Shown here piece after piece: positions 3,980 to 11,546 of a DNA stretch of 11,546 nt. The stretch is taken from IMG/VR virus record IMGVR_UViG_2703718868_000005. One strand, 5' to 3'. Numbering within the stretch: position 1 is the first letter of the stretch; each line of letters begins with the position of its first letter. The notes under the pieces are model-generated. The model had not been told where the DNA came from and did not search any database. It saw nothing but the letters and a program-made list of their open reading frames with translations. Both the position numbers and the translations under genes were made by a program. Source of the stretch: a virus (lineage: Duplodnaviria > Heunggongvirae > Uroviricota > Caudoviricetes).

Positions 3980-4037
3980 TTGCCTCCATAGTCCACATGG
4001 TGTAACACTATGTGTTATATAAAATGCAGAGGCAGGT
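3980..4037 (+). promoter_or_regulatory. Putative promoter/operator of the type II TA operon
   Basis: TTGCCT -35-like element (3980-3985), TATAAA -10-like element near 4018-4023 and an imperfect inverted repeat GTAACAC-N3-GTGTTAT (4002-4018) lie just upstream of the toxin SD GAGG. Typical site for antitoxin autoregulation. Confidence 0.35.
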
Positions 4038-4410
4038 ATGCGAATTTTCAAAAACGCCTGGTTTGAACGTTTCGCCCGAAAACATCGGATTTCCGATAAA
4101 TCGCTGCGCAAAATCGTGGAACAGGCCGATAAGGGGGATCATATCCGCAAATTTGGGTAGTGGTGTCATTAAACAAAGATTAGCCCGAAGTGGTGGCGGA
4201 AAATCAGGCGGTTACCGGACAATAATTTTTTACCGCGTTGCAGAAAAAGCCTTTTTCATCTACGCATACGCAAAGAATGAACGAGAGAATATCACTGCTA
4301 TAGAGGAAAATGCTTTTCGAAAAGCCGCTCCCCATGTCCTCAATCTTACTGATGAACAGCTGGCACAATTGATTCAACAAGGCCAGTTCACGGAGGTACC
4401 CAATGAGTAA
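4038..4410 (+). pseudogene. RelE/ParE-superfamily (HigB-2-like) toxin gene, frameshifted at a G5 run (4133-4137)
   Basis: Frame from ATG 4038 gives MRIFKNAWFERFARKHRISDKSLRKIVEQADKG, then a TAG at 4158. The rest of the toxin (IISANLGSGVIKQRLARSGGGKSGGYRTIIFYR...FFIYAYAKNERENIT) continues in the +1 frame to the stop at 4408-4410. Removing one G restores a single ORF of about 123 aa. Confidence 0.7.
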
Positions 4411-4720
4411 AAATTACCGCAGTGATGCACTTGCATCTGTACATGAAATGATGGAGTCACTCCATGATATCGGTGCAATCACAAAACAAACTATGCGCGA
4501 ATTCGATGAAACTTGTCTTCAGCCTGCGCCGGTAATGTCTCCGGAAAGGATCCGTGCACTGCGAGAACGAGAGCATCTGTCTCAACCTGTTTTTGCCAGA
4601 TACCTCAACGTCAGTAAAAACCTGATATCAGACTGGGAACGAGGAGTGAAACGCCCGGGAGGTGCAGCTCTTCGGCTTCTTTCAGTTGTCGAGAAAAACG
4701 GGATCCAGGTAATATCCTGA
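4403..4720 (+). CDS. HTH-type antitoxin (HigA-2-like) partner of the upstream toxin
   Basis: 105 aa. ATG overlaps the toxin stop (ATGAGTAA) and SD GGAGG sits 6 nt upstream. Motifs SQPVFARYLNVS...DWERG...PGGAALRLL match antitoxins paired with HigB-2-type toxins. Confidence 0.85.
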   Translation: MSKNYRSDALASVHEMMESLHDIGAITKQTMREFDETCLQPAPVMSPERIRALREREHLSQPVFARYLNVSKNLISDWERGVKRPGGAALRLLSVVEKNGIQVIS

Positions 4721-4822: not shown

Positions 4823-4978
4823 TTACTCCTCAGGTTCGTAAGCTGTGAAGACAGCGACCTCCGTCTGGCCGGTTCGGATTCGTACCTCGCAGAGGTCTTT
4901 CCTCGTTACCAGTGCCGTCACTATGACGGTTAAACAGATGACAATCAGGGCGATTAACATCGCCTTTTGCTGCTTCAT
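4823..4978 (-). CDS. hokD: Hok-family type I membrane toxin (HokD/RelF-like)
   Basis: 51 aa, MKQQKAMLIALIVICLTVIVTALVTRKDLCEVRIRTGQTEVAVFTAYEPEE, matching HokD/RelF as I recall it. SD AAGGAG upstream. An in-frame upstream ATG at 5035 gives the 70-aa ORF-track frame, at the position of mok. Confidence 0.9.
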   Translation of the reverse strand: MKQQKAMLIALIVICLTVIVTALVTRKDLCEVRIRTGQTEVAVFTAYEPEE

Positions 4979-5026
4979 AGCCTGCTTCTCCTTGCCTTTC
5001 GGCACGTAAGAGGCTAACCTACATGT

Positions 5027-5095
5027 GCAAAGCATGAAATTGGCCTCAGATTAATGTTAAGCGTCCTGCAAGACGCGTAATGTTAACTGGGGCTT
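5027..5095 (+). ncRNA. Possible Sok-like antisense RNA opposite the hok leader (position approximate)
   Basis: Inferred from hok/sok locus architecture. Weak promoter-like TTGCCT-17-TAACCT at 4992-5020 and a hairpin GCGTC-CTGCAA-GACGC at 5061-5076 on the plus strand. Exact ends not determinable from sequence alone. Confidence 0.2.
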
Positions 5096-5249
5096 TTCTC
5101 TGTCTGCCTTACGGCGGCATGCCCGAGGCAGACAGCCTCAAGCACCCGCAGCAATTCTACTTAACTCTTCTTTCCCCGCAAATCATTTTATCCCCGATGG
5201 TAATGTTCTCCCGATATGGGAATTCCCATATCAAGGTTAACTCAATCGG

Positions 5250-5801
5250 TTAAAGCTCCATTAATTTTCCGGCCAGTTCATCTCGTGGCATTACCAACCA
5301 TCCGCGCGATTTAAGCAAAGCCAGGGCTTCTTCAACCGTCACCAGCTGGCCAGGCGCATCACTTCGGATGAAGGCGGTTTTATCGTCACGGATCGCCAGG
5401 TGAAAATCGATATTCATTTTTCCCATAGCCCGCTCTTTCTCGTACTGGTTGAAGTAACTGTCTTCGAGTTTTTCGAATACTTCCCACGCCTGATCGGTTT
5501 CGAGCATTTTTGCATGACGGGCTGCTCCGCGTTCTGTCCAGAGGATGAGAGTGCGGGTTTTGGGAGAAATTTTCACCTCATTTTGCGACTCGTTTAAAAC
5601 TAGTCGCAAATTTTTGAGCTCATCACCAACAGCTTTAAAGAAGTGTTTTCCCTCAATAAATCGAGATTTATTTTCATGGTGATTCTGCTGTATACGGATT
5701 GCTTCTGTTCCGTAAAGGCGGGCGAGTAACTCAGTTGTGATTACAGGAATCTGGTTATAAGTGACAGGGGAAAGGTTTTTGACAGTAACTTGAGTCGTCA
5801 T
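5250..5801 (-). CDS. ORF6N-domain (KilA-N/antirepressor-like) phage regulatory protein
   Basis: 183 aa. N-terminal motif IPVITTELLARLYGTEAIRIQQNHHENKSRFIEGKHFF and later LILWTERGAARHAKML resemble ORF6N antirepressor domains. SD GAGGG about 8 nt upstream of the ATG. Confidence 0.75.
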   Translation of the reverse strand: MTTQVTVKNLSPVTYNQIPVITTELLARLYGTEAIRIQQNHHENKSRFIEGKHFFKAVGDELKNLRLVLNESQNEVKISPKTRTLILWTERGAARHAKMLETDQAWEVFEKLEDSYFNQYEKERAMGKMNIDFHLAIRDDKTAFIRSDAPGQLVTVEEALALLKSRGWLVMPRDELAGKLMEL

Positions 5802-5962
5802 GATAACGCCCTCTGGTTGATGAATTTAACTATCACCACCTTCAGGTCTCAATCATCAGGTGGCGAGACGTACAGGGTTGAGACTACCGGATCAACCAAC
5901 CGGCCAGCCTTTCGGCTGCCCCATACGCCTCACCATAATTCAGATGTGCGTGCGCATACGAC

Positions 5963-5987
5963 AATAAAAAACACGCTCGCGGCGTGT
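5963..5987 (-). terminator. Rho-independent terminator ending the replication-side operon
   Basis: Minus strand reads ACACGC-CGCGA-GCGTGT followed by TTTTTATT. Confidence 0.6.
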
Positions 5988-6072
5988 GTCTGTCGCGGTT
6001 GAATATCCGGGGTCTCAATCCCGACGGTCAACTCGACCGTGCGGTGAATATAGCCCCGGATTAGTAATTACG

Positions 6073-6397: not shown

Positions 6398-7159
6398 TCA
6401 CCGCAGCTGTTCTCTGGTGGCGGTAATATCCCGGAGAATATCCCGGCACTTGTTCAGCTCCCGCAGCGCGGCGCAGACTCGCTCCCACTTCTGAACCTGA
6501 CCTTTTACCCGGCGCAGCTCGCGGTTAGCCACATGCAGCGATGGTAGAATCAGGTCATCTGCTTTCGTTTCGGTGACCGATGGCTGTAACTTCACAATGT
6601 CTTCCACGATTTCTGTTTTCATTTCTTCCTGTGTCGTCGTTTCCTGGACTGGTAACGCAACACCTGCTGGCTGAGGAAAGGCTTTACCATCGGTTTCCGC
6701 TACGGATGCAGCTTCCGGCTCTGCCGGTAAATCAGCGCCCGGTATGCAGTAACGAAATTTACCGTTCTGATTTACGCGTGCCAGGCGCCCCGTTGCTGTT
6801 ACGACCGCCAACGTGGAAGCAACCTTGCGAATGCTAACACCGAACTTATCCGCCAGTTCCTCACACGTTTTAGCCCCATCCTGACAGATAAACTCAATCA
6901 TCATGTCCGCGGTAACTTTTTGTTCGACCTCCCCGGTCAGCACATCCGGTACTTCAGACTGTGCTGGCTGCTCTTCGGTTACCCCGGATTCACCTTCACC
7001 AGCCAGAAACCAGGTGTGACCCGTTTTATCAACAACGCCATTTTTTTGGAGTTCCCACAGTTCGTTGAGAACTTCTTCACGGCTGATATCAAGCCGCGCC
7101 GCCAGTTCAACAGAATTGGCTTTACCCATCGCTTTCAGTGCATGCAATACGGTTTCCAT
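6398..7159 (-). CDS. Hypothetical phage protein with two winged-helix-like segments separated by an acidic linker
   Basis: 253 aa with strong SD GGAGGAAA upstream of the ATG. Located after the DnaC-like gene in the same operon. Candidate HTH segments [28 protein letters not shown] and [19 protein letters not shown]. Confidence 0.8.
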
Positions 7160-8943: not shown

Positions 8944-9403
8944 GCTTGAAAGCGATTGCTTTTTCTATAAGCTCGTCTGTCTCACGTTCCACAACAGCTG
9001 GATCTGCAAAAAGCAGCCTGGACTCCACCACATCGCCATATTCTTTGTTTAACCCGGCAATCATGTACGTAATGCTTTTTCCGTCAGTAATTTCGCGGTA
9101 CAACCTGAAATCACTAATCCGGATAGCCTCCATAATTGCCGGAATCAGCGCCGTGAATTTTTCACGCTTATCCCTGGTGTCGATAGCCTTCCAGCGTTCG
9201 AATATCTTCACCCGGTTAACGCCAAGCGCACGCTGATCAACCCCGCCATCATCAAGCGTGACACGCTGAACATCGATGTTCGGGCGTTCCTGTAGAGCCC
9301 AGAAGGCTTCAGTAATTAATATCGTCGCCTGCTCCTGCGTCATTCCTGGTCGGCTTATCCAGGCATCCAGGGCATCGCGTGCCTGCTCAAGGGTGATTTT
9401 CAT
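8882..9403 (-). CDS. YdaT-like protein (cII-position regulator of Rac-type immunity regions)
   Basis: 173 aa. ATG at 9401-9403 overlaps the end of the Cro-like gene. Family assignment rests on position and loose motif resemblance (ALIPAIMEAI). Confidence 0.65.
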   Translation of the reverse strand: MKITLEQARDALDAWISRPGMTQEQATILITEAFWALQERPNIDVQRVTLDDGGVDQRALGVNRVKIFERWKAIDTRDKREKFTALIPAIMEAIRISDFRLYREITDGKSITYMIAGLNKEYGDVVESRLLFADPAVVERETDELIEKAIAFKRAYRHQYQQKAGWNYEPSFC

Positions 9404-9614
9404 TGTTCAACCGCCCCGCCCGCTTCGTCTTACGATATTCGTCATAAACTTTGGGGTCATACTGAAGCTCCCCGCCGGATGCCTCTTGCAGGCGCATCGC
9501 GCGACCTTCAGGGACCAGTTTCCCCCATTGAGAAACAGCAGATGGATCAACACCAGCAGCTTTCGCTACTTTGGCTTTCGTCCCATAAAAATTAATTACG
9601 TCTGATTTAAACAT
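9387..9614 (-). CDS. Cro/YdaS-like HTH transcriptional regulator
   Basis: 75 codons from ATG 9612-9614 with SD GGAGGGG upstream. HTH FYGTKAKVAKAAGVDPSAVSQWGK. Divergent from the repressor gene. ORF-track frame starts at TTG 9641. Confidence 0.75.
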   Translation of the reverse strand: MFKSDVINFYGTKAKVAKAAGVDPSAVSQWGKLVPEGRAMRLQEASGGELQYDPKVYDEYRKTKRAGRLNNENHP

Positions 9615-9691: not shown

Positions 9692-10099
9692 ATGAACGAG
9701 AAAACTTTAGGTCAACGAATTAGAGAAAGACGCAAACAGGTTGGTTTAAGTCAAAACGATTTAAGCAAAGCTGCTGGTGTATCTGGCTCATCAATTTCAC
9801 TATGGGAAAGCGACCATACAGCCCCGCGCGGGCAAAATTTGCATCGCCTGGCTGAGGTATTGCAATGTTCACCAACTTGGATACTGTTTGGTGACGAGGA
9901 TAAAACACCAGATCCACCAGTTGCACTCAACAGCGCCTTAGACTTATCGGAAGATGAGTCGGAGATGTTGCGATTGTATCGCGCACTTCCAAAATCAGAG
10001 CAGCAAGCACAGATCAGCGAACTCCGTGCCCGCGTTGAGAATTTTAATCGCCTATTCACCGAGCTACTAGAAGCTCGCAAACGTAACAAACATCAATAA
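9692..10099 (+). CDS. dicA: DicA-like prophage repressor (XRE-family HTH)
   Basis: 135 aa. HTH QNDLSKAAGVSGSSISLWE. Segments LQCSPTWILFGDEDK and RARVENFNRLFTELLEARKRN resemble E. coli DicA as I recall it. Confidence 0.85.
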   Translation: MNEKTLGQRIRERRKQVGLSQNDLSKAAGVSGSSISLWESDHTAPRGQNLHRLAEVLQCSPTWILFGDEDKTPDPPVALNSALDLSEDESEMLRLYRALPKSEQQAQISELRARVENFNRLFTELLEARKRNKHQ

Positions 10100-10288: not shown

Positions 10289-10441
10289 ATGGATACACTC
10301 AATCTTGGCAACAACGAATCTCTGGTATGCGGTGTGTTCCCTAACCAGGACGGCACGTTTACCGCGATGACGTATACCAGAAGCAAAACGTTTAAAACTG
10401 AAGCTGGCGCGCATCGCTGGTTAGCCAGAAACACTGACTGA
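10289..10441 (+). CDS. ydfA: YdfA-like small protein (first gene of a dicB-operon-like unit)
   Basis: 50 codons from ATG 10289 with SD GAGG 5 nt upstream: MDTLNLGNNESLVCGVFPNQDGTFTAMTYTRSKTFKTEAGAHRWLARNTD. The longer ORF-track frame from 10133 runs through the terminator hairpin. Confidence 0.6.
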   Translation: MDTLNLGNNESLVCGVFPNQDGTFTAMTYTRSKTFKTEAGAHRWLARNTD

Positions 10442-10452
10442 TGAGGTTGACG

Positions 10453-10821
10453 ATGGAATTTAAAGATTTACCAGTACCATTCCAGGATATGGCAGCGAAT
10501 ATAGTTCGTTCTCAACTGGCGACTCTTGACCTGAGTACCGTAGAAAAAGAAACCATCGACAATATATCCCATAATGTGCGTAATGCCTTTATCAAGCTGT
10601 ACGAAGAGAAGCTGAGTTCTGAAAACAAAGATTATTCACCTAAATTCACCCCACACCCAGGTGGAGTGAGTGAGATTTATCATGAAACAATGGTTAAAGC
10701 ACTACGTATGCAAATAGCCGAACTTGAACATAAATTAAATTTAGTTAGTAAGTGCCAAAATCAGCACAAGGCAAAAGGGTTGCACTTTCATCATAAGGGC
10801 AAACAAAAATGTGAGCATTAA
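10453..10821 (+). CDS. Hypothetical protein in the ydfB/ydfC position
   Basis: ATG at 10453 with SD GAGG 6 nt upstream. The low-complexity basic C-terminal tail overlaps a convergent gene. Confidence 0.55.
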   Translation: MEFKDLPVPFQDMAANIVRSQLATLDLSTVEKETIDNISHNVRNAFIKLYEEKLSSENKDYSPKFTPHPGGVSEIYHETMVKALRMQIAELEHKLNLVSKCQNQHKAKGLHFHHKGKQKCEH

Positions 10822-11047
10822 CACCAACTGAATTAGCAACAGAAAAGGTTTGTTCAAGTATTTGATTCGAATTGAGCGTTGACTGAATAACGTATGCCCC
10901 TGGCAACAATTTATATTCAACGTCACCTTCATTAATCATCCTGGAGTATTTAAAATTTGGCATCAGAGTCTCGAACTTTTTCTCCTGTTCCATTGTTGCT
11001 TCAAATAACTGCACATGAACATAATATCGATTTGATTTAGAGTGCAT
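10745..11047 (-). CDS. Hypothetical protein encoded in an AT-rich island, function unknown
   Basis: 100 codons from ATG 11045-11047 with strong SD GGAGGA 5 nt upstream. AT-rich relative to its flanks. 3' end overlaps the ydfB/C-like gene by about 77 bp. Confidence 0.5.
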   Translation of the reverse strand: MHSKSNRYYVHVQLFEATMEQEKKFETLMPNFKYSRMINEGDVEYKLLPGAYVIQSTLNSNQILEQTFSVANSVGVNAHIFVCPYDESATLLPCADFGTY

Positions 11048-11389
11048 TTTATCCTCCATAGAGGTTCTGGGTTAAAAATGGAGACCAACACGCTGTCACG
11101 TGTGGTCGTGCGCCGGACACGGATAAGAATCCGGCACTGACAGTTTACTGAAAGAACATATCCCTGAAAAGTCAGGGCATAACACGAAAGCGCACGGCGA
11201 AGTTAGTCTCTCTGTATATGTCGTCGTTAAGTTTAATTCGATCGTGCGCTTCCGGTTGTGGCAATCCGCGAAATGGCGCGGCGGTAAGTATGGCTGGGGC
11301 TTCCTCCATTGCTCCAGAAAATGCACCGGGTTGTCAGGTTGACCATACGCCTGAGTGACAACACCGCCACAACAACCTCTGTTATCACT

Positions 11390-11428
11390 TTTCTGGTGAT
11401 TCGGCGGAAATGGATATCCGCCATTTTT
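11390..11428 (+). ncRNA. dicF: DicF-like small RNA (short variant)
   Basis: TTTCTGGTGA at the 5' end, then a GGCGGA-AATGGATA-TCCGCC hairpin (11403-11422) and a T5 tail. This matches the start and terminator of E. coli DicF as I recall it, but with a shorter central segment. Confidence 0.5.
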
Positions 11429-11546
11429 AAAGTGTATTTTGTGATGCGGTGAATGCGGCTAAGCGCACGCGGAACAGTTAAAACAAGCGGTCTTTTACTG
11501 GCGTAACAGACATCAACTAACAATCCGGCGTTAATTGTTAACTGGT

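Follow-up and report, generated by a model that had tools for sequence, protein, structure and literature searches.

A short dicF allele with the 5' end and the terminator of DicF but without its ftsZ-pairing segment

The stretch of DNA analysed here (the window, 11,546 nt of the IMG/VR record IMGVR_UViG_2703718868_000005) carries a short element at 11390-11428 on the plus strand which, judged by alignment and gene order, is the positional and evolutionary counterpart of dicF in an early-left dicBF-type operon. It is a natural separation-of-function variant: the 5' end and the terminator are kept, and the whole segment that pairs with ftsZ, pykA, manX and pch is gone. We think it rather likely that this short allele is a disarmed DicF, whose remaining role would be termination and processing in front of dicB. 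It is probably a DicF without a grip on cell division and not a new kind of regulator.

The short element shares both ends with K-12 dicF

The window region 11060-11546 (487 nt) was aligned pairwise with the ydfC-dicB spacer of K-12, with L002 3383-3435 as the dicF reference. The mean column identity was 81%, and long identical blocks were found on both sides of dicF. Because these flanks of about 487 nt align with the K-12 ydfC-dicF-dicB spacer, the resemblance is not a matter of chance. The initial annotation had seen a DicF-like 5' end and terminator at 11385-11430. This range encloses the whole element, and the alignment to K-12 bears the assignment out, with identity at both ends of the element, homologous flanks and the same position in the operon.

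Read directly, the element is TTTCTGGTGA TTC GGCGG AAATGGATAT CCGCC ATTTTT. The decamer TTTCTGGTGA (11390-11399), UUUCUGGUGA in the RNA, is identical to the start of K-12 DicF at 10 of 10 positions and is invariant across all copies of the short allele that were collected by flank anchors only. It is followed on the plus strand by TTC (11400-11402), where K-12 has CGTTT at nt 11-15, by the left stem half GGCGG (11403-11407) and the right half CCGCC (11418-11422), and by the terminator tail ATTTTT (11423-11428). Both stem halves and the T-run are the same in K-12, whereas the 26-nt hairpin top of K-12, TATCAGTTTTACTCCGTGACTGCTCT, is replaced by the 10 unrelated nucleotides AAATGGATAT. Measured to the point where the K-12 annotation ends (11390-11423), the short allele has 34 nt compared to 53 nt in K-12 and is 19 nt shorter. 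The centre had been described as shortened, which holds for its length but does not cover the change as a whole, since the interior is replaced and nt 11-15 are altered as well. Since the 10 nt of the interior do not occur as a subsequence within the 26 nt of K-12, an origin by simple internal deletion of K-12 dicF was rejected. The junction peculiar to the short allele reads GGUGAUUCGGCGGAAAUGG.

The alignment with K-12 dicF and the folding predict a short DicF-type RNA of 39 nt including the U-run (11390-11428, plus strand), its 5' end being set by the RNase E end of K-12. The predicted fold (-11.1 kcal/mol) consists of a 13-nt single-stranded 5' tail, UUUCUGGUGAUUC, a 6-bp hairpin with an 8-nt loop and a U-tail. 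The hairpin, GGCGGA-AAUGGAUA-UCCGCC at 11403-11422 on the plus strand, was returned by the folds and, together with the tail, by a consensus scan for terminator-like sites. Five of its 6 bp are G-C and ATTTTT follows directly. It differs from the K-12 hairpin in its small size and in its stability, -11.1 kcal/mol versus -15.9 kcal/mol. The base of the hairpin is common to every dicF allele and its top is peculiar to the short allele. The terminator tail is AUUUUU in the window and CUUUUU, the same as in K-12, in the O157:H7 and E. albertii copies.

In K-12, an RNase III cut of the dicBp transcript yields a 190-nt DicF, RNase E generates the 53-nt form and DicF's own terminator makes the 3' end (Ragunathan et al.). 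The K-12 5' end made by RNase E falls in the loop of a small precursor hairpin. When the precursors of the alleles were folded, an equivalent small hairpin was obtained around the RNase E site of the short allele, AUCACU/GGUGAU with the loop UUUCU (11384-11400, plus strand). The helix is in a shifted register relative to K-12 and uses two allele-specific substitutions, A->C at -2 and C11->U, which result in a perfect AUCAC/GUGAU helix and leave the U-rich RNase E site in the small loop. By analogy with K-12, RNase E would cut at this hairpin.

The element lies in a dicBF-type operon

The dicBF operon of K-12 is governed by the dicA/dicC immunity region. Over its last 647 nt the window matches E. 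coli STEC1585 (NZ_CP129252.1, coordinate offset 1101) at 100% identity; in that record the window is part of a lambdoid prophage whose integrase adjoins ompW. In the PGAP annotation of this identical record, a Cro/DicC-like gene (9387-9614, minus strand) is divergent from a gene for a DicA-like helix-turn-helix repressor (9692-10099, plus strand), a layout as in K-12. The first gene of the operon is a ydfA-like DUF1391 gene (10289-10441, plus strand; PGAP; Pfam PF07151, E 6e-29). It is followed in NZ_CP129252.1 by a hypothetical gene, about 600 nt of unannotated sequence and then dicB, which starts at the window-equivalent position 11606, 60 nt beyond the end of the window.

The short element is preceded by a non-coding structured leader (11100-11383, plus strand), which the alignment identifies as homologous to the untranslated region between ydfC and dicF in K-12, the source of the RNase III-made 190-nt DicF precursor there, and is followed by a conserved spacer up to dicB (11429-11546, plus strand; annotation of NZ_CP129252.1 and alignment). 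The region 11096-11435 folds more stably than its shuffles (z = -2.55). The leader (about 290 nt, highly conserved with K-12) has a long hairpin at about 11190-11250 that could be a substrate of RNase III. The dicBF operon of the Qin prophage of K-12 has the same layout, from dicA/dicC through ydfA and the long leader to dicF, which is located 174 nt upstream of dicB.

The arrangement was the same at most of the other loci. At the short-allele loci, dicB was present downstream in 37 of 39 cases and the ydfA-like gene upstream in 38 of 40. The corresponding values for the canonical loci were 126 of 129 and 124 of 132.

The segment pairing with most DicF targets is absent

DicF is toxic via ftsZ, has the metabolic targets xylR, pykA and manX, and plays a virulence role in EHEC via pchA. 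Balasubramanian et al. 2016 (PMC5069750) located the pairing with ftsZ and pykA in the 3' part of DicF and that with xylR at its 5' end. Duplexes were analysed in 20 x 24-nt windows and compared to composition-matched shuffles; full-length duplexes were over-extended and contained giant loops. Canonical DicF was better than the shuffles with pykA (DicF nt 26-43, -22.5 kcal/mol), manX (nt 35-54, -33.4 kcal/mol), the early coding region of pchC (nt 32-51, -21.0 kcal/mol) and xylR (nt 6-18, -20.4 kcal/mol). The sites for pykA, manX and pchC are all inside the segment that is absent from the short allele, so that the predicted site for the early pchC coding region has no counterpart there, and the xylR site is outside. 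When the short allele was analysed in the same windowed test, its best duplexes with pykA, manX and pchC were no better than the shuffles.

With xylR, the canonical run GGUGACGUUU/AAACGUCACC is reduced in the short allele to GGUGA/UCACC plus flanking G-U pairs, and 5 of the 10 contiguous Watson-Crick pairs are kept; the altered nt 11-15 belong to the xylR seed. The duplex of the short allele with xylR at -31..-9 was above chance, with 2 of 40 shuffles as good, and would require the melting of the terminator stem.

The ftsZ-pairing region had been suspected to be missing, and this is confirmed by the K-12 alignment. The stretch assigned to ftsZ (PMC5069750) is absent; TATCAGTTTTACTCCGTGACTGCTCT with its anti-Shine-Dalgarno motif ACUCCG is missing, and so is the GACUGCUCUGCC stretch. 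The full-length duplex with ftsZ changed from -40.8 kcal/mol for canonical DicF to -21.4 kcal/mol for the short allele and was shifted off the ribosome-binding site. Since the windowed test is insensitive to the long discontinuous pairing with ftsZ (z = 0.2 for canonical DicF), the loss of ftsZ control is concluded from the absent segment and not from the energies. We infer from these comparisons that the short RNA could not carry out the canonical DicF regulation. The 13-nt 5' tail might address a new set of targets.

Reassorting alleles at the dicF position

The alleles at this position were collected by scanning IMG/VR with the flank anchors GTCAGGTTGACCATACGC ... GGTGAATGCGGCT alone. This gave 79 distinct sequences with spacers of 90-121 nt. 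They fall into at least 7 allele classes, each built from a 5' tail and a hairpin top. The 5' tails are of the A-type (TTTCTGGTGA...), the D-type (CCATGTGTAGTCTTT), the E-type (CCCATGTTGATTACCTTTT), the G-type and the I-type, and the hairpin tops are A, B, C, E, F/H and I, where A is the canonical and B the short allele. Example loci are L131 for C, L231 for D, L235 for E, L256 for F, L254 for G, L241 for H and L264 for I. Allele C combines the canonical 5' tail with a different hairpin top and is mostly found in O157:H7, and allele D combines a new 5' tail with a DicF-like hairpin. Invariant in all classes are the GGCGG/CCGCC base, the U-run and the downstream block TTTTTAAAGTG...GGTGAATGCGGCT.

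The two parts are reassorted. The A tail occurs with the tops A, B and C, the E tail with the tops E and F/H, the top E with the tails E and G, and a near-canonical top A with the tail D. When the precursor segments were folded, a terminator hairpin of -16 to -24 kcal/mol was present in every class except a 90-nt deletion derivative. Because all other intact alleles keep the hairpin base and the tail, termination is the function shared by the dicF locus. Of all classes, the short allele is the one with by far the smallest hairpin; its 5' tail is A-like. The 90-nt derivative, allele J (L262), has lost the 5' half of the hairpin.

The hairpin of the short allele was always paired with the TTTCTGGTGATTC tail. 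It was found on at least three upstream haplotypes; in the 27 nt ahead of the RNA, up to a third of the positions differ between them. Variation within the 39-nt core is confined to one loop base (T/C), the base after the stem (A/C) and two rare stem changes. These values were taken from the anchor-only collection, as a diversity profile based on regular expressions is partly circular for the seed and is inflated by indels in the distant flanks.

For the origin of the short hairpin, its interior was compared with those of the other alleles. The reverse complement of the E. albertii-type loop, ATATCCGTTT, agreed in register with 9 of the 10 bases that open the interior of the F/H hairpin; as a control, 253 of 20,000 shuffled 10-mers reached 9 of 10 anywhere. 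The best forward match of the short interior to the hairpin interior of any allele was 7 of 10. This points to a possible mosaic or inverted origin of the short hairpin, in which an F/H-type hairpin was inverted, truncated and joined to an A-type tail.

The short allele is widespread in Escherichia

The allele classes were counted in 5,426 complete E. coli genomes by megablast, with queries (63-78 nt) specific to each allele. This collection is rich in O157:H7 and the counts are not population frequencies. The canonical allele A was found at 6,701 places in 3,976 genomes and the short allele B at 528 places in 442 genomes. They were followed by allele D (317 places, 296 genomes), allele C (294 places, 290 genomes), the alleles F/H (170 places, 158 genomes) and the alleles E/G (144 places, 108 genomes). 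The short allele is thus the second most common allele class of the dicF locus in the complete E. coli genomes.

It is present in O157:H7 86-24 and in the prophage Sp14 of Sakai, where it is located at 2,707,678-2,707,710 between ECs_2767 and the dicB gene ECs_2768, and it also occurs in E. albertii (L125). We conclude that the short allele is old or widely spread and no one-off lesion, because there are 528 copies, it occurs in E. albertii too, it is found on at least three upstream haplotypes and its 39-nt core is near-invariant. Among 50,697 deposited phage genomes the short allele was absent, and a canonical-type locus was found in several isolated phages. Within IMG/VR, the hairpin sequence of the short allele was found only in the dicF context, except for one unrelated GC-rich match.

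Sakai and 86-24 are said to carry four dicF copies (review, PMC7873438). This count seems to omit the short copy and possibly allele C too. Counts of dicF copies are incomplete, since annotation based on the Rfam model RF00039 misses the short allele and at least four other classes at the locus.

Two side observations concern the carriers of these alleles. The Sp14 prophage of Sakai with the short allele (L004 22473-22787, 39678-39710) also encodes pchC, espJ and tccP. Metagenome bins labelled Veillonella parvula and Collinsella (L135, L138) contain a canonical-type E. coli dicF on short contigs, most likely mis-binned Escherichia prophage DNA.

A probable terminating and processed RNA without most of the DicF pairing residues

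Since the leader, the hairpin at the RNase E site and the terminator are all kept, the short allele would follow the K-12 pathway and give an RNA of about 39 nt. Transcripts would start at the DicA-controlled promoter, RNase E would cut in the small loop just upstream of the element as in K-12, and the transcripts would stop at the 6-bp terminator. The resulting RNA would lack the pairing residues for pykA, manX and pch and, according to the literature, for ftsZ. The main job retained would be to terminate and process transcripts ahead of the toxic dicB, and the 13-nt 5' tail would be the sole source of any remaining riboregulation. An inert short RNA would show that prophages can shed a toxic regulator and keep the terminator guarding dicB.

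A different reading, which we hold to be possible but not likely, is that the element encodes an active minimal Hfq-dependent sRNA of about 39 nt that has been re-targeted via the 13-nt tail, and perhaps via the 8-nt loop, with ftsZ not among its targets. Selection on an active RNA could account for the near-invariant tail and the rebuilt precursor hairpin, and so could selection on a terminator. This reading gains from the near-invariance of the core on three upstream haplotypes and in two species, from the two allele-specific substitutions that rebuild the hairpin at the RNase E site, and from the rank of the allele as the second most common class of dicF locus. In addition, a two-module cassette with swapped tails and tops recalls the prophage RNAs AgvB and AsxR (PMC4104026). 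However, the conservation could stem from a recent horizontal spread, as O157:H7 dominates the copies with 97% identity, and xylR, the sole validated target of the DicF 5' end, keeps only half of its contiguous pairs.

One Hfq dataset also weighs slightly against an active sRNA. Table S2 of Tree et al. 2014 (PMC4104026) has no orphan Hfq-CRAC peak at 2,707,678-2,707,710 of Sakai, where the short copy lies. This says little, because laboratory cultures keep the operon repressed and canonical DicF is also missing from the 27 top-ranked known sRNAs of that study.

With similar reserve we consider that the dicF position might be a two-module sRNA cassette, in which the short allele makes a minimal ~39-nt RNA that acts on host targets of its own in place of ftsZ, and in which the alleles C, E/G, F/H and I are likewise distinct regulators. 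If active, the short RNA would be among the shortest Hfq-type regulators. The reassorting allele series at the dicF position, mostly missed by annotation, may outweigh the single allele in value.

AgvB and the covariance models

It is very improbable that the element is an AgvB-like anti-sRNA that acts as a GcvB sponge via the CACAACA at 11368-11374. The motif is the R1 target consensus of GcvB (PMC4104026), and the AgvB model RF02702 gave the only weak match on the strand of the element (11359-11428, 15.2 bits, E = 3.4). This score is far from the gathering score of 56, and a snoRNA model on the opposite strand matched about as weakly. CACAACA lies 16 nt upstream of the predicted 5' end and would be part of the long precursor, outside the short RNA. 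The E. albertii-type short allele has CTGCAACGCCC in its place, and the motif varies with haplotype and allele. By chance alone, 11.5 kb of DNA should contain a given 7-mer about 1.4 times when both strands are counted.

The locus differs as well. AgvB genes occupy the moron site, downstream of the late promoter PR', whereas the element is in an early-left operon, and AgvB and AsxR are primary transcripts with their own promoters (PMC4104026). AgvB identity was rejected because of the wrong locus and the sub-threshold score, with no significant match here. What the element has in common with AgvB and AsxR is that they are very short prophage RNAs with a variable 5' part and a conserved 3' part bearing the terminator; their variable 5' ends are placed on a conserved 3' body and they are 51-60 nt long (PMC4104026).

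The assignment to DicF was not supported by the Rfam covariance model. RF00039 had no match in the window at the gathering score (48 bits) and none at E<=10 on a 547-nt slice or on a 66-nt slice around the element, whereas K-12 dicF scores about 77 bits. When representative loci were scanned in one run, the canonical copies scored 76.7-77 bits and allele D 61.1 bits, and the O157:H7 and E. albertii-type short copies were missed together with the alleles C, E, F, G, H and I. Among the classes at the dicF position, RF00039 therefore recognises A and D only. The short element is, by its alignment, a homologue by position and descent and not a member of RF00039 as defined by the curated model.

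The failure of the model at any threshold would suit an ordinary terminator unrelated to dicF, with the likeness in TTTCTGGTGA and GGCGG/CCGCC arising by chance, but this is hardly tenable: the flanks are homologous to those of K-12 dicF over about 490 nt, the position upstream of dicB is the same, and the hairpin is confined to the dicF context in IMG/VR, one unrelated GC-rich match aside. The initial annotation had allowed for an unrelated terminator of an upstream gene, which does not apply, as the terminator is that of dicF itself. A protein-coding function has practically no chance, although ORFs at 11233-11523 (minus strand) and 11309-11452 (plus strand) are on the mechanical list and a mini-ORF, ATGGATATCCGCCATTTTTAA, is found at 11410-11430: coding is ruled out because the spacers (90, 97, 102, 104, 106-109, 111, 114-116, 118 and 121 nt) differ by non-multiples of three, the K-12 counterpart bears a non-coding RNA annotation, and the ATG of the mini-ORF is ACG in the E. 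albertii-type allele.

Other features of the window

An ORF of 104 aa on the minus strand (10745-11059) converges on the operon. It matches phrog_8894 over nearly its full length (E 7e-34), has GGAGG just before its second ATG and was left unannotated by PGAP in the identical record. An ORF on the plus strand (10441-10821), which matches phrog_6937 over its first 70 aa only, overlaps with it at the 3' end of the plus-strand ORF. The gene at 10745-11059 was found upstream in 5 of 40 short-allele loci and in 1 of 132 canonical loci.

Three Rfam families were matched at the gathering score, all on the minus strand: the sok antitoxin RNA (4973-5147, 117 bits) beside a hok-type ORF, the C4 antisense RNA (5856-5940, 69 bits) and isrK (5966-6040, 51 bits). 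The latter two are located just upstream of a gene with an ORF6N domain (5250-5801, minus strand), and the C4 RNA, isrK and the ORF6N gene look like a P1-like c4/ant immunity module inside the lambdoid prophage. A type II toxin-antitoxin pair on the plus strand (4012-4720), made up of a gene for a RelE/ParE-family toxin and, behind it, a helix-turn-helix gene (PGAP, identical record), is situated between the replication genes and the hok/sok locus.
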